Assembly (NCBI GenBank): GCA_044892505.1
Contig: CM097882.1
Coordinates: forward strand, 312,356,001-312,420,000
Length of the DNA: 64,000 nucleotides
Direction of reading: 5' to 3'
Source of the DNA: Schmidtea nova
Taxonomy: Eukaryota
The notes beneath the pieces were generated by a model. That model did not search any database, had not been told where the DNA came from, and saw nothing but the letters and a program-made list of their open reading frames with translations. Position 1 is the first letter of the stretch, and every line of letters begins with the position of its first letter. A program made the translations under genes and the position numbers. Positions 10,116 to 58,470 of this stretch are shown here, one piece after another.

Positions 10116-10223
10116 AATTTTTCTCAATTCATTATTTGACTTTTATTATATTTGCAACTCTTTTTTTAAGTGTTGATATATATATTGTAAATTTTAACGA
10201 TTGATAAATTCTTTCAAGGTTCG

Positions 10224-12857: not shown

Positions 12858-12863
12858 AGATGT

Positions 12864-15800
12864 GTGCCTGCATCAGCTCAATCGTCTGCCATTCCCTCTA
12901 ATGAGACTGATGCAGAGAGCACAACTAAAAATAATATTTCAACTATCGACAATCGTGATCCTGAAGTGTGGTTTTCTGATAATGATATTGATTGGTATCT
13001 TGAAAACCACATTGATAATCCAATGCATGGATATATTAAATGCTTTATAGTAAATATCATCTGTTCTAACATCACAGAAGATATTGTTGAAATTCCACCA
13101 TCTATTAGCAATGCTGAAATTGTATTTTGTCCACTCAACATTAACAATTCGCACTGGATTCTTTTTGTTTATAGTAAGAAAATGTTATCTTCTTACTTTA
13201 TTGACCCAATCCTTGCAAACAGACAAAAGCCAATCAATAAACAAATGGCTCAGAGAATTAACCTAAAACTGAATAGATTTTTTAATCTAAATATATCTGT
13301 GTCCCGACATCCACACAAACATCTTGAATATCAAAATAACAGCTTTGATTGTGGCCCATTTACGTGTGCTTATGCTGTGATTATCAGTAAAGATTTGAAC
13401 AGCTTTCCAAATGGGTTCATAGAGAAAATTCGTACCAGTGTGCATGAAAATCAAAATCGTATGCAAATAACCGAATCCACCTTATTCGCTGGTACTAACT
13501 CCAAGATGGACATGACCAAAATAAATATCAAGAAAGCCCTTGCAAAAAAGAAAGTCATCACCAACACCTCAGATATGACCAAAGTATTGAACACTCAAAA
13601 ACCGTGTGTGTCATCAATAATTAGTAAATATTACGAAAGTAATTCTAAAATAACAGTCTTATCTGCCGAACTAACTTTAAACCTAATTGCACAAAATACC
13701 TCCTTCATAGCTGATAATGTCACTTTCAAGCAGTTCAAAGGAATCGATCATGTTATAAGTATCATTCCTAAATTTAACGATTGGTGTCTCTTTGTCTATT
13801 CGAATAAACTTGACAGGAGCTACATGTTCGACTTCAATTATCGAAACATTGATGAAAGGCTAATTGAAATTGGTGAAAAGATAACTGAATATCTGAATCA
13901 ATTCACTCTTGTTTCTAAAATAAAATTCACACCTCATCATAGAATTTCTCATCCAACATTTCATTCTTACGATGATCAATATTTTGCAAGTTCTTTTATT
14001 GTATTTTTTGAGAAACTTGTCTTTGAAAGAATACTGGACAATGATAAGGTTTATGACTCATTAAGTGCTCTAAAATATCAGTCTTGTAAAGATCTTTCTC
14101 CTAGCTTAAGTTTCATTAATGGTAAAATATCCGACAAAATTATTGAGGAATATTTTGCTAGCCTAAACTTATCGACCAAATATATTCTTCTAAACACAAC
14201 AATGTGTACTGCGCTTTCAGATGATTGCACTGAATACTTGAAAGACTTTGTAAACATTGAGTGCATGATGAAGGCTACTATAATCTTTGTAATCATTTCT
14301 CCTCCAAGAGCCAACGACTTGCTCATGGTTATTGATTACGACGCTGATGAGCACTATTTATTAAGCCCAGTCACTAATGACTTGTTCGTTATGACTGAAG
14401 GATTCTGCTATAAATTACTAATTAAAATTAATGAGATTAGAGAGAGCACAGGTCGTTCCTTGAAATCGCGTAATTGTCGACATGACGTTAAAGGTTCTGG
14501 CTTATTTAGTAGGTTATTAATCTGTGCCTTTATTAAATATTATGCATTTGACCGATCTCTAGAAAATATCAATCTTCATGAAATTGGCAAAATTATCTAC
14601 TCACTTGTGCCATTAGTTGATAAAAATGATAATGCTGAGGAAGAAAGACGACTAAAATCAAAAGCTGTAAACTCTTTAAAACTAAATTTAAAACAGCGAA
14701 TAGAAAAAGCCAATAATCTTATAATTTCACTTGAACACGCCAGTATTGATGAAATCATAAGTGGCATTCTTTCAAATATTCCTCGTCTTAAAGATTTGAA
14801 CACCGATCACATTCGTACACCATATTTAGGTACTAAAGTAGAAAAAGCTAGAAAATTCAAAAATTCCACTGAATTTCTGTCAAACATGAAAAAGACTGTG
14901 TATAGGATTTTGGGTAACAACACAGAATCAATTGCACCTCCTTTTCAGGAAATTATTGACACTTTCAGTCATCCTGATACATTACCTAGAAATTGGGAAA
15001 ACATCTTTAAATTCACTAAGAGTTCTAAATTTAGTCTTGAATTAAATCCAATGACACCTAAAGAAATCCTTTCAAGTCTTTGCAAAGCTGACAACACTTC
15101 TCCAGGTCTTGATAATGTTTGTTATAAAGATCTTTTGCTATTAGACCCTGAATGTAAATTGCTAGCTTTTCTGTACAATAAAATCCTAAAATTAGACATT
15201 ATTCCTACAAGTTGGAAATCATTTAAAACCATACTAATCCCTAAACCAGATAAAAATGGCCAATATCATAAAATATATTCTTGGCGACCAATTGCCTTAT
15301 TATCTGTCATTTACAAAGTCTTCGCTTCAGTTTTGGCAAATCGTCTAAGCTTATGGATAAGAAATAATTCCATGTTACACATTGGCCAAAAGGGTGGTTC
15401 GGAGTACGAAGGATGTATTGAACACAACTCTATTCTTTCTGCTATCGTCGAACATTCAAAATACAGCAAGTCTTCACCTTTAACAATAGCTTGGCTAGAC
15501 ATCAAAGATGCCTTCGGAAGTGTTCCACATGACTACATGTGGACACTGTTAAAACACATAAATGTTAGTGATAGGTTTGTAGGAATTTTAAAACTGCTCT
15601 ATACTGATACAAGCTCGTTTTATTGTTGCAATAAAATGCAGACACCGGATATTCCAATAAAGAAAGGAGTTAAACAAGGTTGTCCGATCTCAATGATATT
15701 GTTTGCAATAGCTATTAACCCAGTACTTGAGTCTATTAATCTATCAAACGTTAATCCTTTTACGATTGGAACATCTCCGGTACAGGTGTTGGCTTATGCG

Positions 15801-17474
15801 GATGATATCGCACTTATCGCGACAAATACCTCTGATCTGCAAATACTCATAAACGTTGCTGTAAACACCGCTAAAACAATTGGATTTGAATATCGTCCAG
15901 AAAAGTGCGCTTATATGCAATACCCTAAAATAGAAACTGTAAGCGAGATTTCTGTCAACAATGTTCTTATAAAAAAGATTGCAACAAATGAATTTTACCA
16001 ATACTTGGGAGTACCAATAGGTGACAATAATGACCAAAGTCCCTATGAAATTCTAAGCAAAGTAATTGAAGACACAAAGAAAATAGCAAATTCTGATCTT
16101 TACGGCTGGCAAAAACTTAAAGCGTATAAGGTCTTTCTGCATTCTCGCTTGATTTTTCCATTTAGAACTAGGGAAATCAAAACAAGTTCTTTAGCTGATT
16201 CGAGTAAAAATTCAAAATTAAATGTAAATAATACGAGTATTTTGAGGAGTCATCTTAGAAAAATATTGCACTTGCCACACTACTCTGAGATTAGCTATTT
16301 TTATAATTCTACTGAAAACGGCGGTGCAGGCTGCATAGACTTACTTGACGAGTATCATACACAGACAATCGTGTACTTTTTCCGCTTGTTAACATCAACG
16401 TGCGAATATTCGAAAAAGATAAATACTGACTCGCTTTTATTTGTCACAAGTCCGAGACTCGGAATCAAAAATCCAGTTCTTAAACAAAGTTTAGAATGGA
16501 TAAATGGAAAAGAGAGCAAGAAAAACAACAGTGGTTGCAAAACTCGATTTTATCGGTTGCGATCATCCATTGCTTACTTTTCTAAAGTTCACAACATTAA
16601 ATTGTTATTTGAAACAGTGAAAGGGAATCCTTCTATCCGTATAACCACTACACTTAAGGGAACACGTATATTATTACCAACATTAAGAAAAGCATTGTCA
16701 ATGATTTTACATTCAGCTCTCCAGGATTCGTATCTCGAGAAATGGGAGAATAGCAACCATAATAATCTGCTTGTATCTGCGATTAAACTCTGTCCACTTG
16801 TCAACAAGCTTATTTTCCGCAGTGATTTGACAGAATTTGAATGGAGATTCGTCCATTGAGCAAGAACGAATACATTATCAATATTTGCGAAGCCATATAA
16901 AACTGGCGAAAATCGTCTTTGTCGTAGATGTAAGCTTGAAGACGAGACTTTATCACACGTTCTTCAAACTTGTAAAATGAACAAATCTTTGGCAACTAGT
17001 CGACATAACGCTTGCTTAGAAAAAATAAAAAGCGAGTTGAAAGATCCAAACTTGTTAGTTGTTGCGGATCATAAATGTTCCCTAGTACCGACATCAACTG
17101 AACGCGTTGATTTAATAATAACCAATAATGATAAAAAGACCATATTATTGGTAGACATGAAATGCCCAATCGATTCGGTGCCCAACTTTGACTTGGCTGA
17201 TAAAAAAAACATAGAAAAGTATGATAAACTAAAATCGGAAATTAAAATAGCCAAACCCGATTATAAAGTTGAGTTGTTTACCTGCATCATAGGCTCATTA
17301 GGATCCATTGAAATTAAAACACCTGATCTTTTAGTAAAAATGGGCGTAAAAGAAAATAAAGTAAAACGTCTGATGAAAGAGTGTGCAATTAGCAATATTG
17401 CGCACTCGGCCAAAATTTGGTACTTTCATACCAATGGCTTTCTTCCAGATAATATAAGACAAACTTTTAAATAA
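12864..17474 (+). pseudogene. ORF2 with premature stop (CGA>TGA at 16857) before the CCHC/endonuclease
   Basis: CATTGAGCA here vs CATCGAGCA in other copies; frame continues to 17474. Confidence 0.88.
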
Positions 17475-41951: not shown

Positions 41952-42131
41952 AATTTTTCTCAATTCATTATTTGACTTTTATTATATTTGCAACTCTTTT
42001 TTTAATTCATAACGCAATTTTGTTGTTGAATTCTCTACTTTGTACATAAATTTTATTCAAGTGAATTCAGTACATTTTGTCAAGGTAATTCGAAAATCAA
42101 ACATGCACAACAATTGTTAGTTGAAACTGTC

Positions 42132-42204
42132 GGTTCGATGGTGTAGCGGTTATCACGTCTGCCTAACACGCAGAAGGTCCCCGGTTCGATCCCGGGTCGA
42201 ACCA
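42132..42204 (+). tRNA. tRNA-Val(AAC)
   Basis: Identical to 988-1060. Confidence 0.96.
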
Positions 42205-42384
42205 AATTTTTCTCAATTCATTATTTGACTTTTATTATATTTGCAACTCTTTTTTTAATTCATAACGCAATTTTGTTGGTGAATTCTCTACTTTGTACAT
42301 AAATTTTATTCAAGTGAATTCAGTACATTTTGTCAAGGTAATTCGAAAATCAAACATGCACAACAATTGTTAGTTGAAACTGTC

Positions 42385-42457
42385 GGTTCGATGGTGTAGC
42401 GGTTATCACGTCTGCCTAACACGCAGAAGGTCCCCGGTTCGATCCCGGGTCGAACCA
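42385..42457 (+). tRNA. tRNA-Val(AAC)
   Basis: Identical to 988-1060. Confidence 0.96.
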
Positions 42458-42637
42458 AATTTTTCTCAATTCATTATTTGACTTTTATTATATTTGCAAC
42501 TCTTTTTTTAATTCATAACGCAATTTTGTTGTTGAATTCTCTACTTTGTACATAAATTTTATTCAAGTGAATTCAGTACATTTTGTCAAGGTAATTCGAA
42601 AATCAAACATGCACAACAATTGTTAGTTGAAACTGTC

Positions 42638-42668
42638 GGTTCGATGGTGTAGCGGTTATCACGTCTGC
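42638..42668 (+). pseudogene. tRNA-Val(AAC) 5' fragment (nt 1-31), including the left TSD at 42656-42668
   Basis: GGTTCGATGGTGTAGCGGTTATCACGTCTGC followed by element sequence TTCGATGACTC. Confidence 0.93.
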
Positions 42669-42672
42669 TTCG

Positions 42673-45306
42673 ATGACTCAATCACCTGCTGCTCAGTCAA
42701 CTGCTGCTGATGTAATGACTCAGTCTATTGCAAATCAGTCAACTGTGACGAAGCAATATGAATTAGAAAACATTCTCAAATATCAAATTTCTAAATTGCA
42801 ATGTTTTCAATCGATTTTGGATAATCATTCTCAACTAAATGGTGGAAATCTCGCTACTGCCTCAGTTCTATCTGATGCGAATGCAAGTCAACGGAGTTCT
42901 TTCGATCAAGGATCTAAAATTTCTCAAAACCAATCTGATAATATGCCACTTTCTTATGCTGATATTGAGACAAAATTCACTAAATCAAAGGATTTACTGA
43001 TTGTCAAGCGCCTGGATTCATTGGAGTCTCAATTTATGAATATGGCTGAAAAGTTAGATTATTTGGTTTCTTTGTTTAATGGCTCTGTTGATGATTTATC
43101 AGATTTTCCTAAAGTAAATGAAAATAATTTAAATAATAATCCTTTTAATAAAAATAAAGTTTTTGATATCAAAGATAAATTAATTGTAAATAATGTAGTT
43201 TTAGATAAATCAAATATTTCAGAATTTATTGAAAATAATATTGCTAAAATTCCTAATAGTTTAATTGATGTAAATAATAAAATGTGTAATTCAAATAATA
43301 AATTTCTAAATAACCCTAATAAAGAGAATGTTAAACATTTTAATAATCCCAAAGATACATCTTCAATTGATTTGACTAACGATAAAATTATGCCAAATGA
43401 AAACATAGAAATAATTATTAAAAATAATAAAAAATCTGTTAAAATTATAGAACCTTATAAAACAACTAAAGAGAAGTATGATAAATTTGAATTTAAAAGT
43501 CTGGTTCGTATTTTAACGAAAAGGGAACGCCAGAAAATCTTGAATGCCTTCCCTGCTTTAATACAACTAATTAAAAAGAAAGAATCACAGAGTAAATATT
43601 TTGAAATTAATAAATTTCTTTCGAGCAAAGATTTTAATGTGAATCACTTGAATTTAAATAATTTTGATTATTTTTTCTATAGAAATTGTAATCTTTGTGT
43701 ATCTTTAAAATTGAACAACGCTCCTGTCATTTTATCAGCACCAAAACCTGTTGTTTTAAAAACTATTAAATTAATTGACCATAATATCGTCAAAATAAAT
43801 TCTGAAATCCCTGACTTTGTTCGAGCTCCAATGTCAATTCGAAGATTTTTATTCAATCTTTCGCACGATCTTTCAAACACTGTTTCCATCAAGGATGAGA
43901 AACACAGGGGAAATAAAATAAATAACATTCTTACTTCAATGAAACATAAACAACAATTACCAGATTATTTAATAAAATCAAACATTAAATACGAAAATGG
44001 TGAGTTCTTATTATTAGATTTGACTAACGATAAAATCAAATTGAACGACGATAATAACTTGATAAAATCAAATTTTTCTGAACTTACTAGAAGTCAGATT
44101 AAAAATCTTTACTATTCTTATCCTTCTCTTAAGGAAGTTTGTTTCGTTGAAAATCTTGAAACAAGATCATCATCCGTTAGTAAAATTATCGAATCTTTAA
44201 AGTTAATTAATGAATTTCCAAAAAATATCATTTTTAAAGAGGGTAAATTTTATCAGTCTGATAAAAGAACAATCTCACCTAGTAGTTCTCCTGACATAAT
44301 GTTCAACCTTGGTCTTTTTAATTTGGCTAGTATGAGTAGAAAAGATTGTGAATTAAAATCCATTTTAGAGAAGACTGGTTGTGACTTTAAAATAGTTGAA
44401 ATAATATTCTACCTCAACTATTTAGGCTTGACTCAATCTTTAGAATTTTGCAAAAATCAAACTTATTCTGATTATGTGAGGAATTACGTCTGTAATTGCT
44501 GCTTGATAAACTCACTCTGTAGTATTGCTGATGTTGATTCGCTTTCATCTGAAGATTTTGAGGGTTGGGCGACCGAAATTGTTCAGAAAATCCCAGTTTC
44601 TTCCTATTACTTCAATAGCTGCCAGGAAAAGCTTTTAAAGCTGAAGCAATGGGACATTTCAACTAAAATCAAAAGAATCCATAACGTTATTTCACCTGAA
44701 ATAATATCTTATTTAAATAACTTTCTTGACTCTGTAGACGTAAAATTTCCATCTAAGTCTCAACAACATAATATTCTAATTAAATTAATGAAAGCTATCA
44801 ATGACATTAAAATTTTTGATGACATACACGGAAATAAAGCAAAAAGACTTGTTTACTTTTTGCTAAGAGATGCCAAGAAATATTTGAATAAAAATCAACG
44901 ATTCAGATTATTTGAATCGAGCAATAAATATTGCACTTCAGAGATGGAGAATATAATTTCAGTAATAATTGAGAACCTTACCAAAGTTACTGACCATGAA
45001 GTTACTACTCCTGAAATCACAGTTGAAGAAACGCCAATTGAAATAACTTGTGATCCTGAACCTATCGTCTTGATTAAGGAAATAAACTGTTTAAAATGTA
45101 ACAATATCATCGAAAAATGCATTCTTGTTAGAGATGGAACAAACGTCAACATCTGTGAAAGCTGTCTATTTGACGCAATTACCTTTGAAAAGCCGATTCC
45201 TGAAGCTACTAATTCGGATACCGAAGAAAATATGGAAACAAATAGTAAGAAATCTTGTCCAAGACCTAGAAAAACAGACAAGAAAACATCAACCAAAGCG
45301 AAATGA
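42673..45306 (+). CDS. ORF1 protein (877 aa)
   Basis: Near-identical to the copy 1 ORF1; private N-terminal substitutions. Confidence 0.88.
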   Translation: MTQSPAAQSTAADVMTQSIANQSTVTKQYELENILKYQISKLQCFQSILDNHSQLNGGNLATASVLSDANASQRSSFDQGSKISQNQSDNMPLSYADIETKFTKSKDLLIVKRLDSLESQFMNMAEKLDYLVSLFNGSVDDLSDFPKVNENNLNNNPFNKNKVFDIKDKLIVNNVVLDKSNISEFIENNIAKIPNSLIDVNNKMCNSNNKFLNNPNKENVKHFNNPKDTSSIDLTNDKIMPNENIEIIIKNNKKSVKIIEPYKTTKEKYDKFEFKSLVRILTKRERQKILNAFPALIQLIKKKESQSKYFEINKFLSSKDFNVNHLNLNNFDYFFYRNCNLCVSLKLNNAPVILSAPKPVVLKTIKLIDHNIVKINSEIPDFVRAPMSIRRFLFNLSHDLSNTVSIKDEKHRGNKINNILTSMKHKQQLPDYLIKSNIKYENGEFLLLDLTNDKIKLNDDNNLIKSNFSELTRSQIKNLYYSYPSLKEVCFVENLETRSSSVSKIIESLKLINEFPKNIIFKEGKFYQSDKRTISPSSSPDIMFNLGLFNLASMSRKDCELKSILEKTGCDFKIVEIIFYLNYLGLTQSLEFCKNQTYSDYVRNYVCNCCLINSLCSIADVDSLSSEDFEGWATEIVQKIPVSSYYFNSCQEKLLKLKQWDISTKIKRIHNVISPEIISYLNNFLDSVDVKFPSKSQQHNILIKLMKAINDIKIFDDIHGNKAKRLVYFLLRDAKKYLNKNQRFRLFESSNKYCTSEMENIISVIIENLTKVTDHEVTTPEITVEETPIEITCDPEPIVLIKEINCLKCNNIIEKCILVRDGTNVNICESCLFDAITFEKPIPEATNSDTEENMETNSKKSCPRPRKTDKKTSTKAK

Positions 45307-45312
45307 AGATGT

Positions 45313-48300
45313 GTGCCTGCATCAGCTCAATCGTCTGCCATTCCCTCTAATGAGACTGATGCAGAGAGCACAACTAAAAATAATATTTCAACTATCGACA
45401 ATCGTGATCCTGAAGTGTGGTTTTCTGATAATGATATTGATTGGTATCTTGAAAACCACATTGATAATCCAATGCATGGATATATTAAATGCTTTATAGT
45501 AAATATCATCTGTTCTAACATCACAGAAGATATTGTTGAAATTCCACCATCTATTAGCAATGCTGAAATTGTATTTTGTCCACTCAACATTAACAATTCG
45601 CACTGGATTCTTTTTGTTTATAGTAAGAAAATGTTATCTTCTTACTTTATTGACCCAATCCTTGCAAACAGACAAAAGCCAATCAATAAACAAATGGCTC
45701 AGAGAATTAACCTAAAACTGAATAGATTTTTTAATCTAAATATATCTGTGTCCCGACATCCACACAAACATCTTGAATATCAAAATAACAGCTTTGATTG
45801 TGGCCCATTTACGTGTGCTTATGCTGTGATTATCAGTAAAGATTTGAACAGCTTTCCAAATGGGTTCATAGAGAAAATTCGTACCAGTGTGCATGAAAAT
45901 CAAAATCGTATGCAAATAACCGAATCCACCTTATTCGCTGGTACTAACTCCAAGATGGACATGACCAAAATAAATATCAAGAAAGCCCTTGCAAAAAAGA
46001 AAGTCATCACCAACACCTCAGATATGACCAAAGTATTGAACACTCAAAAACCGTGTGTGTCATCAATAATTAGTAAATATTACGAAAGTAATTCTAAAAT
46101 AACAGTCTTATCTGCCGAACTAACTTTAAACCTAATTGCACAAAATACCTCCTTCATAGCTGATAATGTCACTTTCAAGCAGTTCAAAGGAATCGATCAT
46201 GTTATAAGTATCATTCCTAAATTTAACGATTGGTGTCTCTTTGTCTATTCGAATAAACTTGACAGGAGCTACATGTTCGACTTCAATTATCGAAACATTG
46301 ATGAAAGGCTAATTGAAATTGGTGAAAAGATAACTGAATATCTGAATCAATTCACTCTTGTTTCTAAAATAAAATTCACACCTCATCATAGAATTTCTCA
46401 TCCAACATTTCATTCTTACGATGATCAATATTTTGCAAGTTCTTTTATTGTATTTTTTGAGAAACTTGTCTTTGAAAGAATACTGGACAATGATAAGGTT
46501 TATGACTCATTAAGTGCTCTAAAATATCAGTCTTGTAAAGATCTTTCTCCTAGCCTAAGTTTCATTAATGGTAAAATATCCGACAAAATTATTGAGGAAT
46601 ATTTTGCTAGCCTAAACTTATCGACCAAATATATTCTTCTAAACACAACAATGTGTACTGCGCTTTCAGATGATTGCACTGAATACTTGAAAGACTTTGT
46701 AAACATTGAGTGCATGATGAAGGCTACTATAATCTTTGTAATCATTTCTCCTCCAAGAGCCAACGACTTGCTCATGGTTATTGATTACGACGCTGATGAG
46801 CACTATTTATTAAGCCCAGTCACTAATGACTTGTTCGTTATGACTGAAGGATTCTGCTATAAATTACTAATTAAAATTAATGAGATTAGAGAGAGCACAG
46901 GACGTTCCTTGAAATCGCGTAATTGTCGACATGACGTTAAAGGTTCTGGCTTATTTAGTAGGTTATTAATCTGTGCCTTTATTAAATATTATGCATTTGA
47001 CCGATCTCTAGAAAATATCAATCTTCATGAAATTGGCAAAATTATCTACTCACTTGTGCCATTAGTTGATAAAAATGATAATGCTGAGGAAGAAAGACGA
47101 CTAAAATCAAAAGCTGTAAACTCTTTAAAACTAAATTTAAAACAGCGAATAGAAAAAGCCAATAATCTTATAATTTCACTTGAACACGCCAGTATTGATG
47201 AAATCATAAGTGGCATTCTTTCAAATATTCCTCGTCTTAAAGATTTGAACACCGATCACATTCGTACACCATATTTAGGTACTAAAATAGAAAAAGCTAG
47301 AAAATTCAAAAATTCCACTGAGTTTCTGTCAAACATGAAAAAGACTGTGTATAGGATTTTGGGTAACAACACAGAATCAATTGCACCTCCTTATCAGGAA
47401 ATTATTGACACTTTCAGTCATCCTGATACATTACCTAGAAATTGGGAAAACATCTTAAAATTCACTAAGAGTTCTAAATATAGTCTTGAATTAAATCCAA
47501 TGACACCTAAAGAAATCCTTTCAAGTCTTTGCAAAGCTGACAACACTTCTCCAGGTCTTGATAATGTTTGTTATAAAGATCTTTTGTTATTAGACCCTGA
47601 ATGTAAATTGCTAGCTTTTCTGTACAATAAAATCCTAAAATTAGACATTATTCCTACAAGTTGGAAATCATTTAAAACCATACTAATCCCCAAACCAGAT
47701 AAAAATGGCCAATATCATAAAATATATTCTTGGCGACCAATTGCCTTATTATCTGTCATTTACAAAGTCTTCGCTTCAGTTTTGGCAAATCGTCTAAGCT
47801 TATGGATAAGAAATAATTCCATGTTACACATTGGCCAAAAGGGTGGTTCGGAGTACGAAGGATGTATTGAACACAACTCTATTCTTTCTGCTATCGTCGA
47901 ACATTCAAAATACAGCAAGTCTTCACCTTTAACGATAGCTTGGCTAGACATCAAAGATGCCTTCGGAAGTGTTCCACATGACTACATGTGGACACTGTTA
48001 AAACACATAAATGTTAGTGATAGGTTTGTAGGAATTTTAAAACTGCTCTATACTGATACAAGCTCGTTTTATTGTTGCAATAAAATGCAGACACCGGATA
48101 TTCCAATAAAGAAAGGAGTTAAACAAGGTTGTCCGATCTCAATGATATTGTTTGCAATAGCTATTAACCCAGTACTTGAGTCTATTAATCTATCAAACGT
48201 CAATCCTTTTACGATTGGAACATCTCCGGTACAGGTTTTGGCTTATGCGGATGATATCGCACTTATCGCGACAAATACCTCTGATCTGCAAATACTCATA

Positions 48301-49923
48301 AACGTTGCTGTAAACACCGCTAAAACAATTGGATTTGAATATCGTCCAGAAAAGTGCGCTTATATGCAATACCCTAAAATAGAAACTGTAAGCGAGATTT
48401 CTGTCAACAACGTTCTTATAAAAAAGATTGCAACAAATGAATTTTACCAATACTTGGGAGTACCAATAGGTGACAATAATGATCAAAGTCCCTATGAAAT
48501 TCTAAGCAAAGTAATTGAAGACACAAAGAAAATAGCAAATTCTGATCTTTACGGCTGGCAAAAACTTAAAGCGTATAAGGTCTTTCTGCATTCTCGCTTG
48601 ATTTTTCCATTTAGAACTAGGGAAATCAAAACAAGTTCTTTAGCTGATTCGAGTAAAAATTCAAAATTAAATGTAAATAATACGAGTATTTTGAGGAGTC
48701 ATCTTAGAAAAATATTGCACTTGCCACACTACTCTGAGATTAGCTATTTTTATAATTCTACTGAAAACGGCGGTGCAGGCTGCATAGACTTACTTGACGA
48801 GTATCATACACAGACAATCGTGTACTTTTTCCGTTTGTTAACATCAACGTGCGAATATTCGAAAAAGATAAATACAGACTCGCTTTTATTTGTCACAAGT
48901 CCGAGACTCGGAATCAAAAATCCAGTTCTTAAACAAAGTTTAGAATGGATAAATGGAAAAGACAGCAAGAAAAACAACAGTGGTTGCAAAACTCGATTTT
49001 ATCGGTTGCGATCATCCATTGCTTACTTTTCTAAAGTTCACAACATTAAATTGTTATTTGAAACAGTGAAAGGGAATCCTTCTATCCGGATAACCACTAC
49101 ACTTAAGGGAACACGTATATTATTACCAACATTAAGAAAAGCATTGTCAATGATTTTACATTCAGCTCTCCAGGATTCGTATCTCGAGAAATGGGAGAAT
49201 AGCAATCATAATAATCTGCTTGTATCTGCGATTAAACTCTGTCCACTGGTCAACAGGCTTATTTTCCGCAGTGATTTGACAGAATTTGAATGGAGATTCG
49301 TCCATCGAGCAAGAACGAATACATTATCAATATTTGCGAAGCCATATAAAACTGGCGAAAATCGTCTTTGTCGTAGATGTAAGCTTGAAGACGAGACTTT
49401 ATCACACGTTCTTCAAACTTGTAAAATGAACAAATCTTGGGCAACTAGTCGACATAACGCTTGCTTAGAAAAAATAAAAAGCGAGTTGAAAGATCCAAAC
49501 TTGTTAGTTGTTGCGGATCATAAATGTTCCCTAGTACCGACATCAACTGAACGCGTTGATTTAATAATAACCAATAATGATAAAAAGACCATATTATTGG
49601 TAGACATGAAATGCCCAATCGATTCGGTGCCCAACTTTGATTTGGCTGATAAAAAAAACATAGAAAAGTATGATAAACTAAAATCAGAAATTAAAATAGC
49701 CAAACCCGATTATAAAGTTGAGTTGTTTACCTGCATCATAGGCTCATTAGGATCCATTGAAATTAAAACACCTGATCTTTTAGTAAAAATGGGAGTAAAA
49801 GAAAATAAAGTAAAACGTCTGATGAAAGAGTGTGCAATTAGCAATATTGCGCACTCGGCCAAAATTTGGTACTTTCATACCAATGGCTTTCTTCCAGATA
49901 ATATAAGACAAACTTGTAAATAA
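45313..49923 (+). CDS. ORF2 Ulp1-RT-CCHC-RLE polyprotein
   Basis: Same motifs; TCK-ending allele. Confidence 0.95.
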   Translation: MPASAQSSAIPSNETDAESTTKNNISTIDNRDPEVWFSDNDIDWYLENHIDNPMHGYIKCFIVNIICSNITEDIVEIPPSISNAEIVFCPLNINNSHWILFVYSKKMLSSYFIDPILANRQKPINKQMAQRINLKLNRFFNLNISVSRHPHKHLEYQNNSFDCGPFTCAYAVIISKDLNSFPNGFIEKIRTSVHENQNRMQITESTLFAGTNSKMDMTKINIKKALAKKKVITNTSDMTKVLNTQKPCVSSIISKYYESNSKITVLSAELTLNLIAQNTSFIADNVTFKQFKGIDHVISIIPKFNDWCLFVYSNKLDRSYMFDFNYRNIDERLIEIGEKITEYLNQFTLVSKIKFTPHHRISHPTFHSYDDQYFASSFIVFFEKLVFERILDNDKVYDSLSALKYQSCKDLSPSLSFINGKISDKIIEEYFASLNLSTKYILLNTTMCTALSDDCTEYLKDFVNIECMMKATIIFVIISPPRANDLLMVIDYDADEHYLLSPVTNDLFVMTEGFCYKLLIKINEIRESTGRSLKSRNCRHDVKGSGLFSRLLICAFIKYYAFDRSLENINLHEIGKIIYSLVPLVDKNDNAEEERRLKSKAVNSLKLNLKQRIEKANNLIISLEHASIDEIISGILSNIPRLKDLNTDHIRTPYLGTKIEKARKFKNSTEFLSNMKKTVYRILGNNTESIAPPYQEIIDTFSHPDTLPRNWENILKFTKSSKYSLELNPMTPKEILSSLCKADNTSPGLDNVCYKDLLLLDPECKLLAFLYNKILKLDIIPTSWKSFKTILIPKPDKNGQYHKIYSWRPIALLSVIYKVFASVLANRLSLWIRNNSMLHIGQKGGSEYEGCIEHNSILSAIVEHSKYSKSSPLTIAWLDIKDAFGSVPHDYMWTLLKHINVSDRFVGILKLLYTDTSSFYCCNKMQTPDIPIKKGVKQGCPISMILFAIAINPVLESINLSNVNPFTIGTSPVQVLAYADDIALIATNTSDLQILINVAVNTAKTIGFEYRPEKCAYMQYPKIETVSEISVNNVLIKKIATNEFYQYLGVPIGDNNDQSPYEILSKVIEDTKKIANSDLYGWQKLKAYKVFLHSRLIFPFRTREIKTSSLADSSKNSKLNVNNTSILRSHLRKILHLPHYSEISYFYNSTENGGAGCIDLLDEYHTQTIVYFFRLLTSTCEYSKKINTDSLLFVTSPRLGIKNPVLKQSLEWINGKDSKKNNSGCKTRFYRLRSSIAYFSKVHNIKLLFETVKGNPSIRITTTLKGTRILLPTLRKALSMILHSALQDSYLEKWENSNHNNLLVSAIKLCPLVNRLIFRSDLTEFEWRFVHRARTNTLSIFAKPYKTGENRLCRRCKLEDETLSHVLQTCKMNKSWATSRHNACLEKIKSELKDPNLLVVADHKCSLVPTSTERVDLIITNNDKKTILLVDMKCPIDSVPNFDLADKKNIEKYDKLKSEIKIAKPDYKVELFTCIIGSLGSIEIKTPDLLVKMGVKENKVKRLMKECAISNIAHSAKIWYFHTNGFLPDNIRQTCK

Positions 49924-50277
49924 ATAATTATATATATATATAAATATTTGCTTTTTAAACTCTGTAAATAAAATTTAAGGTAAATATTTTGTAAAGTAAT
50001 TTTTGTATTAAATATCCAATCTTTTTAATCTGATAAATTGTCTTTGAGAGTTATTAAATTGGGAGACCAAGTATTCTGCGACGTATGTCACTTATTCTAG
50101 AATTATCAACTTCAAAAGAATACAGTCGCAAAGCTGGATGACGAAATCCAAAGAACCAGAAACTTCCATTCAGATTGAACAATTATATTTTGACTGTGAT
50201 TGTTTAGGGACTAATCCATGTTGATTAGATAATCTGTAAAAAAATATGTCAAACTTGTTATATTTAATAAATGTTTA

Positions 50278-50332
50278 TTATCACGTCTGCCTAACACGCA
50301 GAAGGTCCCCGGTTCGATCCCGGGTCGAACCA
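50278..50332 (+). pseudogene. tRNA-Val(AAC) 3' fragment (nt 19-73)
   Basis: Same junction; begins with the right TSD. Confidence 0.93.
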
Positions 50333-50512
50333 AATTTTTCTCAATTCATTATTTGACTTTTATTATATTTGCAACTCTTTTTTTAATTCATAACGCAATT
50401 TTGTTGGTGAATTCTCTACTTTGTACATAAATTTTATTCAAGTGAATTCAGTACATTTTGTCAAGGTAATTCGAAAATCAAACATGCACAACAATTGTTA
50501 GTTGAAACTGTC

Positions 50513-50585
50513 GGTTCGATGGTGTAGCGGTTATCACGTCTGCCTAACACGCAGAAGGTCCCCGGTTCGATCCCGGGTCGAACCA
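50513..50585 (+). tRNA. tRNA-Val(AAC)
   Basis: Identical to 988-1060. Confidence 0.96.
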
Positions 50586-50765
50586 AATTTTTCTCAATTC
50601 ATTATTTGACTTTTATTATATTTGCAACTCTTTTTTTAATTCATAACGCAATTTTGTTGTTGAATTCTCTACTTTGTACATAAATTTTATTCAAGTGAAT
50701 TCAGTACATTTTGTCAAGGTAATTCGAAAATCAAACATGCACAACAATTGTTAGTTGAAACTGTC

Positions 50766-50838
50766 GGTTCGATGGTGTAGCGGTTATCACGTCTGCCTAA
50801 CACGCAGAAGGTTCCCGGTTCGATCCCGGGTCGAACCA
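50766..50838 (+). tRNA. tRNA-Val(AAC), C48>T variant
   Basis: AGGTTCCCGG instead of AGGTCCCCGG (50813). Confidence 0.9.
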
Positions 50839-51018
50839 AATTTTTCTCAATTCATTATTTGACTTTTATTATATTTGCAACTCTTTTTTTAATTCATAAC
50901 GCAATTTTGTTGTTGAATTCTCTACTTTGTACATAAATTTTATTCAAGTGAATTCAGTACATTTTGTCAAGGTAATTCGAAAATCAAACATGCACAACAA
51001 TTGTTAGTTGAAACTGTC

Positions 51019-51091
51019 GGTTCGATGGTGTAGCGGTTATCACGTCTGCCTAACACGCAGAAGGTCCCCGGTTCGATCCCGGGTCGAACCA
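51019..51091 (+). tRNA. tRNA-Val(AAC)
   Basis: Identical to 988-1060. Confidence 0.96.
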
Positions 51092-51220
51092 AATTTTTCT
51101 CAATTCATTATTTGACTTTTATTATATTTGCAACTCTTTTTTTAATTCATAACGCAATTTCGTTGTTGAATTCTCTACTTTGTACATAAATTTTATTCAA
51201 GTGAATTCTTTCAAGGTTCG

Positions 51221-53854
51221 ATGACTCAATCACCTGCTGCTCAGTCAACTGCTGCTGATGTAATGACTCAGTCTATTGCAAATCAGTCAACTGTGACGAA
51301 GCAATATGAATTAGAAAACATTCTCAAATATCAAATTTCCAGTTTGCAATGTTTTCAATCGATTTTGGATTATTTTTCTCAACTAAATGGTGGAAATCTC
51401 GCTACTGCCTCAGTTCTATCTGATGCGAATGCAAGTCAACGGAGTTCTTTCGATCAAGGATCTAAAATTTCTCCAAACCAATCTGATAATATGCCACTTT
51501 CTTATGCTGATATTGAGACTAAATTCACTAAATCAAAGGATTTACTGATTGTCAAGCGCCTGGATTCATTGGAGTCTCAATTTATGAATATGGCTGAAAA
51601 GTTAGATTATTTGGTTTCTTTGTTTAATGGCTCTGTTGATGATTTATCAGATTTTCCTAAAGTAAATGAAAATAATTTAAATAATAATCCTTTCAATAAA
51701 AATAAAGTTTTTGATATCAAAGATAAATTAATTGTAAATAATGTAGTTTTAGATAAATCAAATATTTCAGAATTTATTGAAAATAATATTGCTAAAATTC
51801 CTAATAGTTTAATTGATGTAAATAATAAAATGTGTAATTCAAATAATAAATTTCTAAATAACCCTAATAAAGAGAATGTTAAACATTTTAATAATCCCAA
51901 AGATACATCTTCAATTGATTTGACTAACGATAAAATTATGCCAAATGAAAACATAGAAATAATTATTAAAAATAATAAAAAATCTGTTAAAATTATAGAA
52001 CTTTATAAAACAACTAAACAGAAGTATGATAAATTTGAATTTAAAAGTCTGGTTCGTATTTTAACGAAAAGGGAACGCCAGAAAATCTTGAATGCCTTCC
52101 CTGCTTTAATACAACTAATTAAAAAGAAAGAATCACAGAGTAAATATTTTGAAATTAATAAATTTCTTTCGAGCAAAGATTTTAATGTGAATCACTTGAA
52201 TTTAATTAATTTTGATTATTTTTTCTATAGAAATTGTAATCTTTGTGTATCTTTAAAATTGAACAACGCTCCTGTCATTTCATCAGCACCAAAACCTGTT
52301 GTTTTAAAAACTATTAAATTAATTGACCATAATATCGTCAAAATAAATTCTGAAATCCCTGACTTTGTTCGAGCTCCAATGTCAATTCGAAGATTTTTAT
52401 TCAATCTTTCGCACGATCTTTCAAACACTGTTTCCATCAAGGATGAGAAACACAGGGGAAATAAAATAAATAACATTCTTACTTCAATGAAACATAAACA
52501 ACAATTACCAGATTATTTAATAAAATCAAACATTAAATACGAAAATGGTGAGTTCTTATTATTAGATTTGACTAACGATAAAATCAAATTGAACGACGAT
52601 AATAACTTGATAAAATCAAATTTTTCTGAACTTACTAGAAGTCAGATTAAAAATCTTTACCATTCTTATCCTTCTCTTAAGGAAGTTTGTTTCGTTGAAA
52701 ATCTTGAAACAAGATCATCATCCGTTAGTAAAATTATCGAATCTTTAAAGTTAATTAATGAATTTCCAAAAAATATCATTTTTAAAGAGGGTAAATTTTA
52801 TCAGTCTGATAAAAGAACAATCTCACCTAGTAGTTCTCCTGACATAATGTTCAACCTTGGTCTTTTTAATTTAGCTAGTATGAGTAGAAAAGATTGTGAA
52901 TTAAAATCCATTTTAGAGAAGACTGGTTGTGACTTTAAAATAGTTGAAATAATATTCTACCTCAACTATTTAGGCTTGACTCAATCTTTAGAATTTTGCA
53001 AAAATCAAACTTATTCTGATTATGTGAGGAATTACGTCTGCAATTGCTGCTTGATAAACTCACTCTGTAGTATTGCTGATGTTGATTCGCTTTCATCTGA
53101 AGATTTTGAGGGTTGGGCGACCGAAATTGTTCAGAAAATCCCAGTTTCTTCCTATTACTTCAATAGCTGCCAGGAAAAGCTTTTAAAGCTGAAGCAATGG
53201 GACATTTCAACTAAAATCAAAAGAATCCATAACGTTATTTCACCTGAAATAATATCTTATTTAAATAACTTTCTTGACTCTGTAGACGTAAAATTTCCAT
53301 CTAAGTCTCAACAACATAATATTTTAATTAAATTAATGAAAGCTATCAATGACATTAAAATTTTTGATGACATACACGGAAATAAAGCAAAAAGACTTGT
53401 TTACTTTTTGCTAAGAGATGCCAAGAAATATTTGAATAAAAATCAACGATTCAGATTATTTGAATCGAGCAATAAATATTGCACTTTAGAGATGGAGAAT
53501 ATAATTTCAGTAATAATTGAGAACCTTACCAAAGTTACTGACCATGAAGTTACTACTCCTGAAATCACAGTTGAAGAAACGCCAATTGAAATAACTTGTG
53601 ATCCTGAACCTATCGTCTTGATTAAGGAAATAAACTGTTTAAAATGTAACAATATCATCGAAAAATGTATTCTTGTTAGAGATGGAACAAACGTCAACAT
53701 CTGTGAAAGCTGTCTATTTAACGCAATTACCTTTGAAAAGCCGATTCCTGAAGCTACTAATTCGGATATCGAAGAAAATATAGAAACAAATTGTAAGAAA
53801 TCTTGTCCAAGACCTAGAAAAACAGACAAGAAAACATCAACCAAAGCAAAATGA
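51221..53854 (+). CDS. ORF1 protein (877 aa)
   Basis: Near-identical to the copy 1 ORF1. Confidence 0.88.
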   Translation: MTQSPAAQSTAADVMTQSIANQSTVTKQYELENILKYQISSLQCFQSILDYFSQLNGGNLATASVLSDANASQRSSFDQGSKISPNQSDNMPLSYADIETKFTKSKDLLIVKRLDSLESQFMNMAEKLDYLVSLFNGSVDDLSDFPKVNENNLNNNPFNKNKVFDIKDKLIVNNVVLDKSNISEFIENNIAKIPNSLIDVNNKMCNSNNKFLNNPNKENVKHFNNPKDTSSIDLTNDKIMPNENIEIIIKNNKKSVKIIELYKTTKQKYDKFEFKSLVRILTKRERQKILNAFPALIQLIKKKESQSKYFEINKFLSSKDFNVNHLNLINFDYFFYRNCNLCVSLKLNNAPVISSAPKPVVLKTIKLIDHNIVKINSEIPDFVRAPMSIRRFLFNLSHDLSNTVSIKDEKHRGNKINNILTSMKHKQQLPDYLIKSNIKYENGEFLLLDLTNDKIKLNDDNNLIKSNFSELTRSQIKNLYHSYPSLKEVCFVENLETRSSSVSKIIESLKLINEFPKNIIFKEGKFYQSDKRTISPSSSPDIMFNLGLFNLASMSRKDCELKSILEKTGCDFKIVEIIFYLNYLGLTQSLEFCKNQTYSDYVRNYVCNCCLINSLCSIADVDSLSSEDFEGWATEIVQKIPVSSYYFNSCQEKLLKLKQWDISTKIKRIHNVISPEIISYLNNFLDSVDVKFPSKSQQHNILIKLMKAINDIKIFDDIHGNKAKRLVYFLLRDAKKYLNKNQRFRLFESSNKYCTLEMENIISVIIENLTKVTDHEVTTPEITVEETPIEITCDPEPIVLIKEINCLKCNNIIEKCILVRDGTNVNICESCLFNAITFEKPIPEATNSDIEENIETNCKKSCPRPRKTDKKTSTKAK

Positions 53855-53860
53855 AGATGT

Positions 53861-56800
53861 GTGCCTGCATCAGCTCAATCGTCTGCCATTCCCTCTAATG
53901 AGACTGATGCAGAGAGCACAACTAAAAATAATATTTCAACTATCGACAATCGTGATCCTGAAGTGTGGTTTTCTGATAATGATATTGATTGGTATCTTGA
54001 AAACCACATTGATAATCCAATGCATGGATATATTAAATGCTTTATAGTAAATATCATCTGTTCTAACATCACAGAAGATATTGTTGAAATTCCACCATCT
54101 ATTAGCAATGCTGAAATTGTATTTTGTCCACTCAACATTAACAATTCGCACTGGATTCTTTTTGTTTATAGTAAGAAAATGTTATCTTCTTACTTTATTG
54201 ACCCAATCCTTGCAAACAGACAAAAGCCAATCAATAAACAAATGGCTCAGAGAATTAACCTAAAACTGAATAGATTTTTTAATCTAAATATATCTGTGTC
54301 CCGACATCCACACAAACATCTTGAATATCAAAATAACAGCTTTGATTGTGGCCCATTTACGTGTGCTTATGCTGTGATTATCAGTAAAGATTTGAACAGC
54401 TTTCCAAATGGGTTCATAGAGAAAATTCGTACCAGTGTGCATGAAAATCAAAATCGTATGCAAATAACCGAATCCACCTTATTCGCTGGTACTAACTCCA
54501 AGATGGACATGACCAAAATAAATATCAAGAAAGCTCTTGCAAAAAAGAAAGTCATCACCAACACCTCAGATATGACCAAAATATTGAACACTCAAAAACC
54601 GTGTGTGTCATCAATAATTAGTAAATATTACGAAAGTAATTCTAAAATAACAGTCTTATCTGCTGAACTAACTTTAAACCTAATTGCACAAAATACCTCC
54701 TTCATAGCTGATAATGTCACTTTCAAGCAGTTCAAAGGAATCGATCATGTTATAAGCATCATTCCTAAATTTAACGATTGGTGTCTCTTTGTCTATTCGA
54801 ATAAACTTGACAGGAGCTACATGTTCGACTTCAATTATCGAAACATTGATGAAAGGCTAATTGAAATTGGTGAAAAGATAACTGAATATCTGAATCAATT
54901 CACTCTTGTTTCTAAAATAAAATTCACACCTCATCATAGAATTTCTCATCCAACATTTCATTCTTACGATGATCAATATTTTGCAAGTTCTTTTATTGTA
55001 TTTTTTGAGAAACTTGTCTTTGAAAGAATACTTGACAATGATAAGGTTTATGACTCATTAAGTGCTCTAAAATATCAGTCTTGTAAAGATCTTTCTCCTA
55101 GCCTAAGTTTCATTAATGGTAAAATATCCGACAAAATTATTGAGGAATATTTTGCTAGCCTAAACTTATCGACCAAATATATTCTTCTAAACACAACAAT
55201 GTGTAGTGCGCTTTCAGATGATTGCACTGAATACTTGAAAGACTTTGTAAACATTGAGTGCATGATGAAGGCTACTGTAATCTTTGTAATCATTTCTCCT
55301 CCAAGAGCCCACGACTTGCTCATGGTTATTGATTACGACGCTGATGAGCACTATTTATTAAGCCCAGTCACTAATGACTTGTTCGTTATGACTGAAGGAT
55401 TCTGCTATAAATTACTAATTAAAATTAATGAGATTAGAGAGAGCACAGGACGTTCCTTGAAATCGCGTAATTGTCGACATGACGTTAAAGGTTCTGGCTT
55501 ATTTAGTAGGTTATTAATCTGTGCCTTTATTAAATATTATGCATTTGACCGATCTCTAGAAAATATCAATCTACATGAAATTGGCAAAATTATCTACTCA
55601 CTTGTGCCATTAGTTGATAAAAATGATAATGCTGAGGAAGAAAGACGACTAAAATCAAAAGCTGTAAACTCTTTAAAACTAAATTTAAAACAGCGAATAG
55701 AAAAAGCCAATAATCTTATAATTTCACTTGAACACGCTAGTATTGATGAAATCATAAGTGGCATTCTTTCAAATATTCCTCGTCTTAAAGATTTGAACAC
55801 CGATCACATTCGTACACCATATTTAGGTACTAAAATAGAAAAAGCTAGAAAATTCAAAAATTCCACTGAATTTCTGTCAAACATGAAAAAGACTGTGTAT
55901 AGGATTTTGGGTAACAACACAGAATCAATTGCACCTCCTTTTCAGGAAATTATTGACACTTTCAGTCATCCTGATACATTACCTAGAAATTGGGAAAACA
56001 TCTTAAAATTCACCAAGAGTTCTAAATATAGTCTTGAATTAAATCCAATGACACCTAAAGAAATCCTTTCAAGTCTTTGCAAAGCTGACAACACTTCTCC
56101 AGGTCTTGATAATGTTTGTTATAAAGATCTTTTGTTATTAGACCCTGAATGTAAATTGCTAGCTTTTCTGTACAATAAAATCCTAAAATTAGACATTATT
56201 CCTACAAGTTGGAAATCATTTAAAACCATACTAATCCCCAAACCAGATAAAAATGGCCAATATCATAAAATATATTCTTGGCGACCAATTGCCTTATTAT
56301 CTGTCATTTACAAAGTCTTCGCTTCAGTTTTGGCAAATCGTCTAAGCTTATGGATAAGAAATAATTCCATGTTACACATTGGCCAAAAAGGTGGTTCGGA
56401 GTACGAAGGATGTATTGAACACAACTCTATTCTTTCTGCTATCGTCGAACATTCAAAATACAGCAAGTCTTCACCTTTAACGATAGCTTGGCTAGACATC
56501 AAAGATGCCTTCGGAAGTGTTCCACATGACTACATGTGGACACTGTTAAAACACATAAATGTTAGTGATAGGTTTGTAGGAATTTTAAAACTGCTCTATA
56601 CTGATACAAGCTCGTTTTATTGTTGCAATAAAATGCAGACACCGGATATTCCAATAAAGAAAGGAGTTAAACAAGGTTGTCCGATCTCAATGATATTGTT
56701 TGCAATAGCTATTAACCCAGTACTTGAGTCTATTAATCTATCAAACGTTAATCCTTTTACGATTGGAACATCTCCGGTACAGGTGTTGGCTTATGCGGAT

Positions 56801-58470
56801 GATATCGCACTTATCGCGACAAATACCTCTGATCTGCAAATACTCATAAACGTTGCTGTAAACACCGCTAAAACAATTGGATTTGAATATCGTCCAGAAA
56901 AGTGCGCTTATATGCAATACCCTAAAATAGAAACTGTAAGCGAGATTTCTGTCAACAACGTTCTTATAAAAAAGATTGCAACAAATGAATTTTACCAATA
57001 CTTGGGAGTACCAATAGGTGACAATAATGACCAAAGTCCCTATGAAATTCTAAGCAAAGTAATTGAAGACACAAAGAAAATAGCAAATTCTGATCTTTAC
57101 GGCTGGCAAAAACTTAAAGCGTATAAGGTCTTTCTGCATTCTCGCTTGATTTTTCCATTTAGAACTAGGGAAATCAAAACAAGTTCTTTAGCTGATTCGA
57201 GTAAAAATTCAAAATTAAATGTAAATAATACGAGTATTTTGAGGAGTCATCTTAGAAAAATATTGCACTTGCCACACTACTCTGAGATTAGCTATTTTTA
57301 TAATTCTACTGAAAACGGCGGTGCAGGCTGCATAGACTTACTTGACGAGTATCATACACAGACAATCGTGTACTTTTTCCGCTTGTTAACATCATCGTGC
57401 GAATATTCGAAAAAGATAAATACTGACTCGCTTTTATTTGTCACAAGTCCGAGACTCGGAATCAAAAATCCAGTTCTTAAACAAAGTTTAGAATGGATAA
57501 ATGGAAAAGAGAGCAAGAAAAACAACAGTGGTTGCAAAACTCGATTTTATCGGTTGCGATCATCCATTGCTTACTTTTCTAAAGTTCACAACATTAAATT
57601 GTTATTTAAACAGTGAAAGGGAATCCTTCTATCCGTATAACCACTACACTTAAGGGAACACGTATATTATTACCAACATTAAGAAAAGCCTTGTCAATGA
57701 TTTTACATTCAGCTCTCCAGGATTCGTATCTCGAGAAATGGGAGAATAGCAATCATAATAATCTGCTTGTATCTGCGATAAAACTCTGTCCACTTGTCAA
57801 CAAGCTTATTTTCCGCAGTGATTTGACAGAATTTGAATGGAGATTCGTCCATCGAGCAAGAACGAATACATTATCAATATTTGCGAAGCCATATAAAACT
57901 GGCGAAAATCGTCTTTGTCGTAGATGTAAGCTTGAAGACGAGACTTTATCACACGTTCTTCAAACTTGTAAAATGAACAAATCTTTGGCAACTAGTCGAC
58001 ATAACGCTTGCTTAGAAAAAATAAAAAGCGAGTTGAAAGATCCAAACTTGTTAGTTGTTGCGGATCATAAATGTTCCCTAGTACCGACATCAACTGAACG
58101 CGTTGATTTAATAATAACCAATAATGATAAAAAGACCATATTATTGGTAGACATGAAATGCCCAATCGATTCGGTGCCCAACTTTGACTTGGCTGATAAA
58201 AAAAACATAGAAAAGTATGATAAACTAAAATCGGAAATTAAAATAGCCAAACCCGATTATAAAGTTGAGTTGTTTACCTGCATCATAGGCTCATTAGGAT
58301 CCATTGAAATTAAAACACCTGATCTTTTAGTAAAAATGGGTGTAAAAGAAAATAGAGTAAAACGTCTGATGAAAGAGTGTGCAATTAGCAATATTGCGCA
58401 CTCGGCCAAAATTTGGTACTTTCATACCAATGGCTTTCTTCCAGATAATATAAGACAAACTTGTAAATAA
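53861..58470 (+). pseudogene. ORF2 with 1-bp deletion after 57607 (frameshift before the CCHC/endonuclease)
   Basis: TTATTTAAACAGTG vs TTATTTGAAACAGTG in other copies; split into 1251-aa and 285-aa ORFs. Confidence 0.85.

Follow-up and report, generated by a model that had tools for sequence, protein, structure and literature searches.

Retrotransposons that encode a restriction-like endonuclease (RLE) and insert in tRNA genes have been described in planarians, where LIN25_SM and LIN15_SM represent the R5/LIN group of the NeSL clade (PMC4640811). Here we analyse a window of Schmidtea nova DNA, i.e. the whole stretch of 64,000 nucleotides (nt) at positions 312,356,001 to 312,420,000 of contig CM097882.1, and in it copy 6 of an element that is likewise RLE-bearing and interrupts tRNA-Val genes in the D loop. 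LIN25_SM targets tRNA-Glu at nt 4/5 (PMC4640811), whereas the present family sits at nt 18/19 to 20/21 of Val, Ser, Leu and Arg genes and does not share the site that would place it in the LIN25_SM family. LIN15_SM targets tRNA-Arg about 5 nt 3' of the site used here, and its one depicted 5' junction also lies about 40 nt past the 3' joint; long duplications are not described for either element in the available part of that account (PMC4640811).

Similar questions arise in other lineages. Oomycete Utopia elements, also of the NeSL clade, sit in U2 arrays with intact genes rather than 5' gene fragments upstream of the insertions, as is the case here; this was interpreted as deletion, with the top-strand site left unclear, and long duplication is not considered in the available part of the text (PMC4640811). 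In R1A of the melanogaster group of Drosophila, the 3' joint is fixed, full-length copies end at -9 and upstream target sequence is carried elsewhere, as in our element, and a class with a short duplication plus upstream target sequence resembles copy 6; however, R1A targets 28S genes and its joints cluster near +14, up to 17 bp (PMC2718515), as opposed to a range of 13 bp to 8.5 kb here. In R2 with upstream self-cleavage, target sequence on the RNA's 5' end anneals and gives uniform 5' junctions, and our element carries a comparable tag; but R2 has a 28S target and an HDV-like ribozyme (PMC3774820), whereas our element has two open reading frames (ORFs), a Ulp1 domain, and no Rfam ribozyme at gathering thresholds. 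An unusually long target-site duplication (TSD) is known for R9Av of Adineta vaga, a site-specific RLE element (cited in PMC12203849). Finally, tandem duplications of 1-10 kb at L1 insertions have been seen as large TSDs and ascribed to break-induced replication (bioRxiv 10.1101/2024.12.14.628481); there they are a minor somatic outcome and a short TSD is the rule, whereas here they occur at both readable sites of an assembled genome and with a site-specific element.

From the sequences, we consider it probable that this NeSL/R5-LIN-like element has a fixed 3' end in the D loop while its 5' end joins a variable point downstream, duplicating tens to thousands of bases, and that the 13 bp seen around copy 6 likely represent a single phase of this kind of duplication. 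In the literature outside Repbase and the subscription journals, where the family may be catalogued, we found no report of an RLE element in the tRNA-Val D loop, nor of routine kilobase duplications by a site-specific element; the available part of PMC7962491 says nothing on arrays or on these elements.

The junction of copy 6

The window consists of a tandem tRNA-Val(AAC) array with a unit of 253 bp and 23 intact genes, and holds seven complete and two partial copies of the 7.6-kb element. The features that bear on copy 6 are the following:

42638..42668, + strand: truncated tRNA-Val(AAC) gene, nt 1-31, 5' of copy 6
42656..42668, + strand: 13-bp repeat, upstream copy, tRNA nt 19-31, TTATCACGTCTGC
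42669..42675, + strand: 5' tag TTCGATG, equal to tRNA-Val nt 3-9, leftover of a donor-locus flank (tRNA-Val(TAC) upstream spacer plus nt 1-9)
50278..50290, + strand: 13-bp repeat, downstream copy, TTATCACGTCTGC; opens tRNA nt 19-73 at the fixed 3' joint
42150..42668, + strand: 519-bp (13 + 2 x 253) stretch, upstream copy, candidate true duplication, exact match to the downstream flank, allele 148G at 42279
50278..50796, + strand: 519-bp stretch, downstream copy, exact match to the upstream flank, allele 148G at 50407

The original prediction had taken this arrangement as a 13-bp TSD that defines both cleavage sites. The repeat is indeed present at 42656-42668 and 50278-50290, exact and with a blunt joint, and tRNA-Val nt 19-73 adjoin copy 6 on its 3' side (50278-50332). 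Its 5' junction, TCTGC|TTCGATG, is found seven times in the assembly, and contigs of the public runs X3 and X4 cross it without mismatch, with 26 letters to its left, which is below our 31-letter bridging rule; among the contig pieces listed for X1 and X2, none crosses it.

In a target made of 253-bp tandem units, the copy 6 picture fits equally well a 13-bp duplication, a duplication of 13+253n bp, or a 240-bp deletion. When the two flanks are compared by phase, 13 bp is uninformative, 266 bp gives one mismatch, 519 bp is exact, and 772 bp gives three mismatches. The unit allele 148G, common to both sides of the 519-bp match, is rare, being found five times among 519 unit segments. This suggests that the true duplication at copy 6 measures 519 bp, a reading favoured by the rare allele, albeit not significant against a local null.

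A fixed 3' joint in the D loop

Array 1 (C1 312.23-312.89 Mb, fetched whole) comprises 446 Val-AAC genes, and array 2 (C1 348.06-348.48 Mb, fetched mostly) comprises 337 Val-CAC/TAC genes in its first 400 kb. By pattern search, every 3' end in the arrays falls at tRNA-Val nt 19, 68/68 in array 1 and 36/36 in array 2, with 14 of the latter in CAC genes. Twelve further 3' ends belong to one array-2 copy with a longer tail, seven tRNA-Ser genes, one tRNA-Arg gene, one tRNA-Leu gene, the reverse transcriptase (RT) gene of a long terminal repeat (LTR) element, and one old 89% fragment. The total of 116 thus includes 105 ends at tRNA-Val nt 19, nine at the same D-loop site of Ser, Arg or Leu genes, one off-target end and the old fragment; additional pattern searches found no further copies outside the arrays. 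Ten of the 11 outside copies are joined at GG|TTA or GG|ATA. Since the empty LTR-element site reads GTGG|TTATG in seven of the eight loci examined, the recognised motif would be the end of the A box, GG|TTA.

The site specificity proposed originally is therefore borne out, by all 104 array ends and by nine more at the same site in other tRNAs, and target-primed reverse transcription (TPRT) is supported for what is an RT/RLE non-LTR element with a fixed D-loop 3' joint. As for the bottom-strand nick, placed by the original prediction at nt 18/19, the D-loop site is fixed but the nick may lie 1-2 nt further 3'. At the Arg site, where the target reads GG ATAAGG, the product has T and not A at the first position, nt 19; this T came from the element, so that the nick would probably lie after nt 19, judging from this single case. 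In contigs of runs X1, X2 and X4 (L099:684), the DNA that follows an element 3' end matches, over its initial 15 nt, antisense 28S rDNA near the LIN24/LIN26 site, a single case seen in run contigs only that would cap the nick at 20/21. We found no match to this joint in the assembly, and rejected 28S rDNA as a target site in the assembled genome on that ground.

Kilobase duplications at two readable sites

At the off-target site on C3, inside an LTR element, a stretch of 4,565 bp occurs a second time behind the element. It begins exactly at the nick (29,612,558) and stops exactly at the 5' joint, its two copies differ by one substitution and one 70-bp indel, and the joint has 3-nt microhomology. 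The repeated stretch is an LTR/transposase composite of 4.6 kb; C3:29,612,560 looked at first like an inserted mobile element bordered by a short TSD, but turned out to mark the beginning of this duplication. The C3 copy is the only 5'-truncated one with a readable joint, and its duplication is 4.6 kb, not 13 bp. At C1:539.0 Mb (minus strand), an 8,554-bp repeat extends from the nick to the 5' joint, with 12 substitutions and again 3-nt microhomology, and takes in most of an element of a sister LIN family (see below).

Within the arrays, we looked for rare alleles common to both flanks in phase. In array 2, six of 35 copies share such alleles (over 362-4,719 bp) against seven of 226 local control pairs (p 7e-4), and closer inspection upheld two of the six, namely junction F, with three alleles over 523 bp, and a copy of type N, with 731 or 1,694 bp. 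Array 1 has three of 67 such copies (519, 868 and 1,121 bp; p 7e-4 against all pairs). We had initially taken all non-standard junctions as deletions; the C3 and C1:539 repeats, together with the allele test, reversed this for the readable sites.

Variable 5' joints and donor-locus tags

In addition to the seamless form there are 15 classes of 5' joint, with 0-5 nt of microhomology: A to G, four in Ser arrays, and one each for Arg, Ser-GCT, Leu and C3. In tandem arrays the visible quantity is the phase of the joint, not its absolute length; the phases are 13, 40, 59, 109 and 172 of 253, 70 and 199 of 380, 139 and 187 of 378, and 390 of 713. These ten array phases, which exclude junctions F and G of the mixed array 2, are compatible with a uniform distribution (Kolmogorov-Smirnov p 0.13). 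Under a random-phase model, the probability that at least one of the ten classes lies at 13 bp or less is 0.34, and at 20 bp or less 0.48, so the 13-bp length is not beyond chance. A short TSD of fixed length was not found, as one class in 15 lies below 20 bp and the readable lengths are 4,565 and 8,554 bp. The TSD of R9Av is reportedly 126 bp and of fixed length; here it varies and is up to ~70 times longer. The inference of a top-strand cut at nt 31/32, marked by the 13 bp, is not supported: 13 bp is one class of 15 and does not fix the second-strand cut, given that the repeats around other copies reach 8.5 kb. In the Arg array, the alleles allow either a deletion or a duplication of the shortest phase only (~390 bp); a TGA/TGA match at L153 in the Ser/Arg-array comparison is weak. 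Directly upstream of the element, 54 of the 67 classed array-1 copies have an intact tRNA gene.

Where the first bases of the element come from is apparent at copy 6 itself, whose positions 42669-42675 equal tRNA-Val nt 3-9. We had considered the corresponding stretch of types A and B a 5' untranslated region (UTR), but rejected this, as it is the upstream spacer of the tRNA-Val(TAC) genes of array 2 followed by tRNA nt 1-9. In array 2, 34 of 36 copies read nt 1-9, element, nt 19-73, and are seamless with the Val(TAC) flank, although CAC genes, which harbour 14 of the 36 3' ends, usually have a different flank. This donor-locus tag is present in 14 of the 15 junction classes. In array 1 it is cut at varied points (type A, 39 copies; B, 14; C, seven; D, six; E, one; plus one old edge copy). 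All eight full-length copies fetched from Ser/Arg/Leu arrays bear the Val-array tag, as does the C1:539 Mb copy, and two of these carry the array-1 type-A junction with array-1 spacer. The simplest reading of the tags is that the element RNA starts in the donor flank, as shown for R1A of the melanogaster group (PMC2718515) and for many R2 elements (PMC3774820); donor flank at heterologous insertions would imply upstream target sequence on the transcript. If so, homology could pass junction types on from copy to copy, and the junction of a given copy would not have to reflect a cut at that place.

Arrays 1 and 2 are nearly devoid of 5'-truncated copies: in 14 of the 15 junction classes the joint is no more than 60 nt away from where ORF1 starts, which is not common among non-LTR families. 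A distance of 17-21 nt separates the end of many tags from the element body. In junction G of array 2 (C1:348164626), a telomere-like GGGTTAGGGTT stretch lies between target and tag. For type C, GC microhomology via an AAGC tag variant is a doubtful explanation: the variant is present at two outside copies, whose 5' haplotypes differ from type C, and is absent from both arrays.

Relations among copies

The copies are ~99.4% identical, with a median of 46 differences, and 4,647 of 6,328 site pairs among them fail the four-gamete test. The idea that copy 6 was inserted independently of types A and B holds in part. The type C founder is separate from A and B because type C has private 5' alleles, 42823A and 42826C occurring in five of seven type C copies and in none of 92 others; copy 6 itself, however, is not a unique event, as 49.5 kb upstream lies a type-C twin from which it differs at only two bases. 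Once its first 950 bp are set aside, copy 6 shows 0-1 differences per 950-bp segment to A, B and array-2 copies, its body being a mosaic common to them. A 49.5-kb block duplication giving rise to copy 6 and its twin was also considered: junction order is similar, but we rejected it in view of 39 differences between the adjoining copies and of unequal spacer lengths.

At the right edge of array 1 (L096:1770-2130), an AAC tRNA remnant is followed by array-2 CAC-type spacer and then by a degraded element. This suggests that arrays 1 and 2 have a common origin or have exchanged DNA.

A possible mechanism and its alternatives

The proposed sequence of events would be as follows. The ORF2 protein would nick the bottom strand within GG|TTA, immediately 3' of the GG of the A box and probably after nt 19 or 20, as the fixed 3' joints indicate. 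TPRT would then copy the RNA up to its 5' end, donor-locus tag included; the tags are observed in the copies, their carriage on RNA being our interpretation. The 3' end of the cDNA may pair with top-strand DNA downstream of the nick, via the tag where the target has one, recreating types N, A, B and C, and elsewhere via 0-5 nt of microhomology. The DNA between nick and joint would then be duplicated, either by synthesis that returns to the nick or by repair that draws on a distant top-strand end or on the sister chromatid, the products being those seen at the two readable sites. No fixed second cut would be needed. As the duplication would usually restore an intact tRNA gene upstream and add units, insertion would expand the arrays.

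A broader version of this scheme, to which we give somewhat less than even chances, is that the lineage has no second cut of its own: the cDNA end would invade downstream DNA and copy back, duplications of hundreds to thousands of bp would be normal, the gene would be rebuilt, units added and neighbouring elements copied, and captured donor flank would become heritable junction types.

Several points weigh against duplication as the source of the variable 5' joints. Absolute length is readable at two sites only; of these, the C1:539 repeat may instead stem from two sister elements in tandem with a deletion between them, and the C3 copy is 5'-truncated, so that a later break with unequal repair could have made its repeat. 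At the Leu site, the 2.4 kb upstream is not found again before the contig end. The sharing of rare alleles in array 1 is limited to three of 67 copies and has p 0.19 against local pairs; of the other four cases in array 2, two depend on alleles that occur 11 times, one is flanked by neighbours that are nearly identical, and one equals the whole upstream block and may come from a crossover. The flanks match at no phase (ungapped) in 10 of 67 array-1 and 26 of 35 array-2 copies, as is expected under heavy recombination among copies; by the same token, present 5' and 3' flanks need not stem from one event.

The strongest alternative places the 5' joints on the upstream side of the nick. Insertion would then usually cause a precise 9-bp deletion via the RNA tag, the other classes would be deletions of ~80-340 bp (240 bp at copy 6), and the long repeats would be older tandem duplications or the result of later unequal exchange. 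Array 2 gives in 34 of 36 copies the same picture as the precise 9-bp deletion of R1A (PMC2718515), the intact U2 genes upstream of Utopia were interpreted in this way (PMC4640811), and the copies recombine heavily. Yet at C3 this would require a pre-existing, near-identical 4.6-kb tandem starting exactly at the nick; the rare alleles on both sides would be unexplained, with junction F sharing three over 523 bp while its neighbours are unrelated; and in a tandem array -9 is equivalent to +582 or +361. We therefore deem it unlikely. Even lower we rate the model of the original prediction, a staggered cut of ~13 nt recorded by copy 6 and akin to the R1A "insertion site rearrangement", in which a short duplication is followed by upstream target sequence to -9. 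The 13-bp repeat is exact with a blunt joint, the anatomy of copy 6 is that of the R1A rearrangement, 14-bp duplications are ancestral in R1 (PMC2718515), and the type C founder haplotype is its own; but R1A joints pile up near +14 (PMC2718515), while here one class in 15 lies below 20 bp, at chance level (p 0.34-0.48). Moreover, seven copies share this one junction, the twin of copy 6 is two bases apart, the rare allele favours 519 bp, and the sole readable 5'-truncated copy has 4.6 kb.

It is very improbable that the type-C junction arose after insertion, with an A, B or D copy losing the tRNA from nt 32 on and the larger part of its tag through an internal deletion or recombination, and array recombination later spreading the result. 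Cutting 146 bp from a type B or 167 bp from a type A 5' end would give the junction exactly, and past the first 950 bp copy 6 is near-identical to A, B and array 2; however, the joint lies inside the tag, as do 14 of 15 independent joints, and 42823A and 42826C mark five of seven C copies and 0 of 92 others. That the junction is an assembly artefact of a collapsed repeat is hardly credible, even in a tandem array with copies ~99.4% identical: the seven copies have distinct haplotypes and contigs of two public samples cross the junction, although these samples may be related to the assembled material. Duplication from a fixed nick to a variable downstream joint is thus the explanation that we retain as probable.

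Structure and affiliation of the element

The 7.6-kb element has ORF1 and ORF2 in one frame, separated by a single TGA. Its remaining features in copy 6 are:

42673..45306, + strand: ORF1, 877 aa from the first ATG, ends at one in-frame TGA, no significant Pfam match
45307..49923, + strand: ORF2, 1538 aa, same frame as ORF1 (ORF translation)
45553..45849, + strand: predicted Ulp1-like cysteine protease (Peptidase_C48, aa 83-181), Pfam E 6e-7, above cut-off; weak SENP2 match
47686..48465, + strand: predicted reverse transcriptase (RVT_1, aa 794-1053, YADD at 980), Pfam E 2e-29
49369..49671, + strand: predicted CCHC zinc knuckle (aa 1355-1372) and RLE motifs, aligned to the R2 C-terminus, domain E 3e-6
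49924..50277, + strand: 3' UTR, 29 of its final 33 nt agree with the 3' end of LIN25_SM

Of the 101 complete array copies, 84 retain both ORFs intact; in the window, ORF2 is broken in copy 2 (10191-17474, premature stop) and copy 7 (51170-58470, 1-bp deletion). Judged by its domains (RT, CCHC and RLE), the element is an RLE-type non-LTR retrotransposon. The RT of ORF2 has R2 proteins as best matches among solved structures (E 6e-53), ORF2 aa 1347-1517 align to the R2 C-terminus, and the RLE motifs are RHN at 1382, VD at 1417, D-x-K at 1433 and KY at 1454. An apurinic/apyrimidinic endonuclease (APE), the enzyme used by R1 elements, is not represented among the four Pfam matches of the ORF proteins. 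Features typical of the R2 clade are lacking, in that two ORFs are split by a conserved TGA and the targets are tRNA genes, not 28S. A Rfam scan of 42000-51300 at gathering thresholds gave tRNA matches only, and thus no ribozyme at the element 5' end.

The Ulp1-like protease lies upstream of the RT, as is characteristic of the NeSL clade, where it has been described for nematode NeSL and Utopia-1_TSP (PMC4640811). The 29/33-nt match to the LIN25_SM 3' end, compared by eye with the S6 figure of PMC4640811, points to an R5/LIN-like family, and the target is a multicopy RNA gene, as in LIN types (114 of 116 3' ends in tRNA genes). The closest protein homologues are 40-59% identical and are unnamed or generic RT proteins, with no named R5/LIN among them.

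The TGA context between the ORFs (window 45295-45320) is kept in 89 of the 91 copies with full-length ORF1, and the same context, AAATGAAG, occurs in the sister family, whose ORF2 is 53% identical. As ORF2 has no nearby ATG, this suggests that it is expressed by programmed read-through or re-initiation at the TGA. The first ATG of ORF1 (window 42673-42675) coincides with tRNA-Val nt 7-9 and may be shared between element and tRNA, so that the element would have no 5' UTR of its own, unlike the sister family, with one of ~130 nt. The first 60 nt of the element contain TGACTCA twice, which we take to be an AP-1-like motif.

The sister family is likewise LIN-like and intact, with ORFs of 914 and 1537 aa; it occupies nt 4/5 of tRNA-Ser(GCT), a LIN25-type position, as seen at C1:539040747-539048000 (minus strand). 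Three outside copies of our element are interrupted or preceded by long elements with AGTAG-type ends (C3:29620201-29636655, C1:539021-539039 kb and C189:15100), two of these with short target duplications; the AGTAG-end elements are presumably Polinton-like.

Implications

Second-strand completion by non-LTR retrotransposons is a long-standing open question, and top-strand cuts are routinely inferred from TSDs in tandem targets. As copy 6 illustrates, such readings can err by whole repeat units; the 15 junction classes and two absolute lengths reported here are available to test insertion models. In addition, an A-box target common to several tRNA isotypes widens the range of targets known for RLE endonucleases.

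Should long duplication be the rule, it would offer a testable re-reading of the intact genes upstream of Utopia and would explain how more than 100 mostly intact copies reside in essential tRNA genes without depleting them. It would also provide a mechanism for the growth of tRNA arrays, with a retrotransposon acting as an engine of array expansion.

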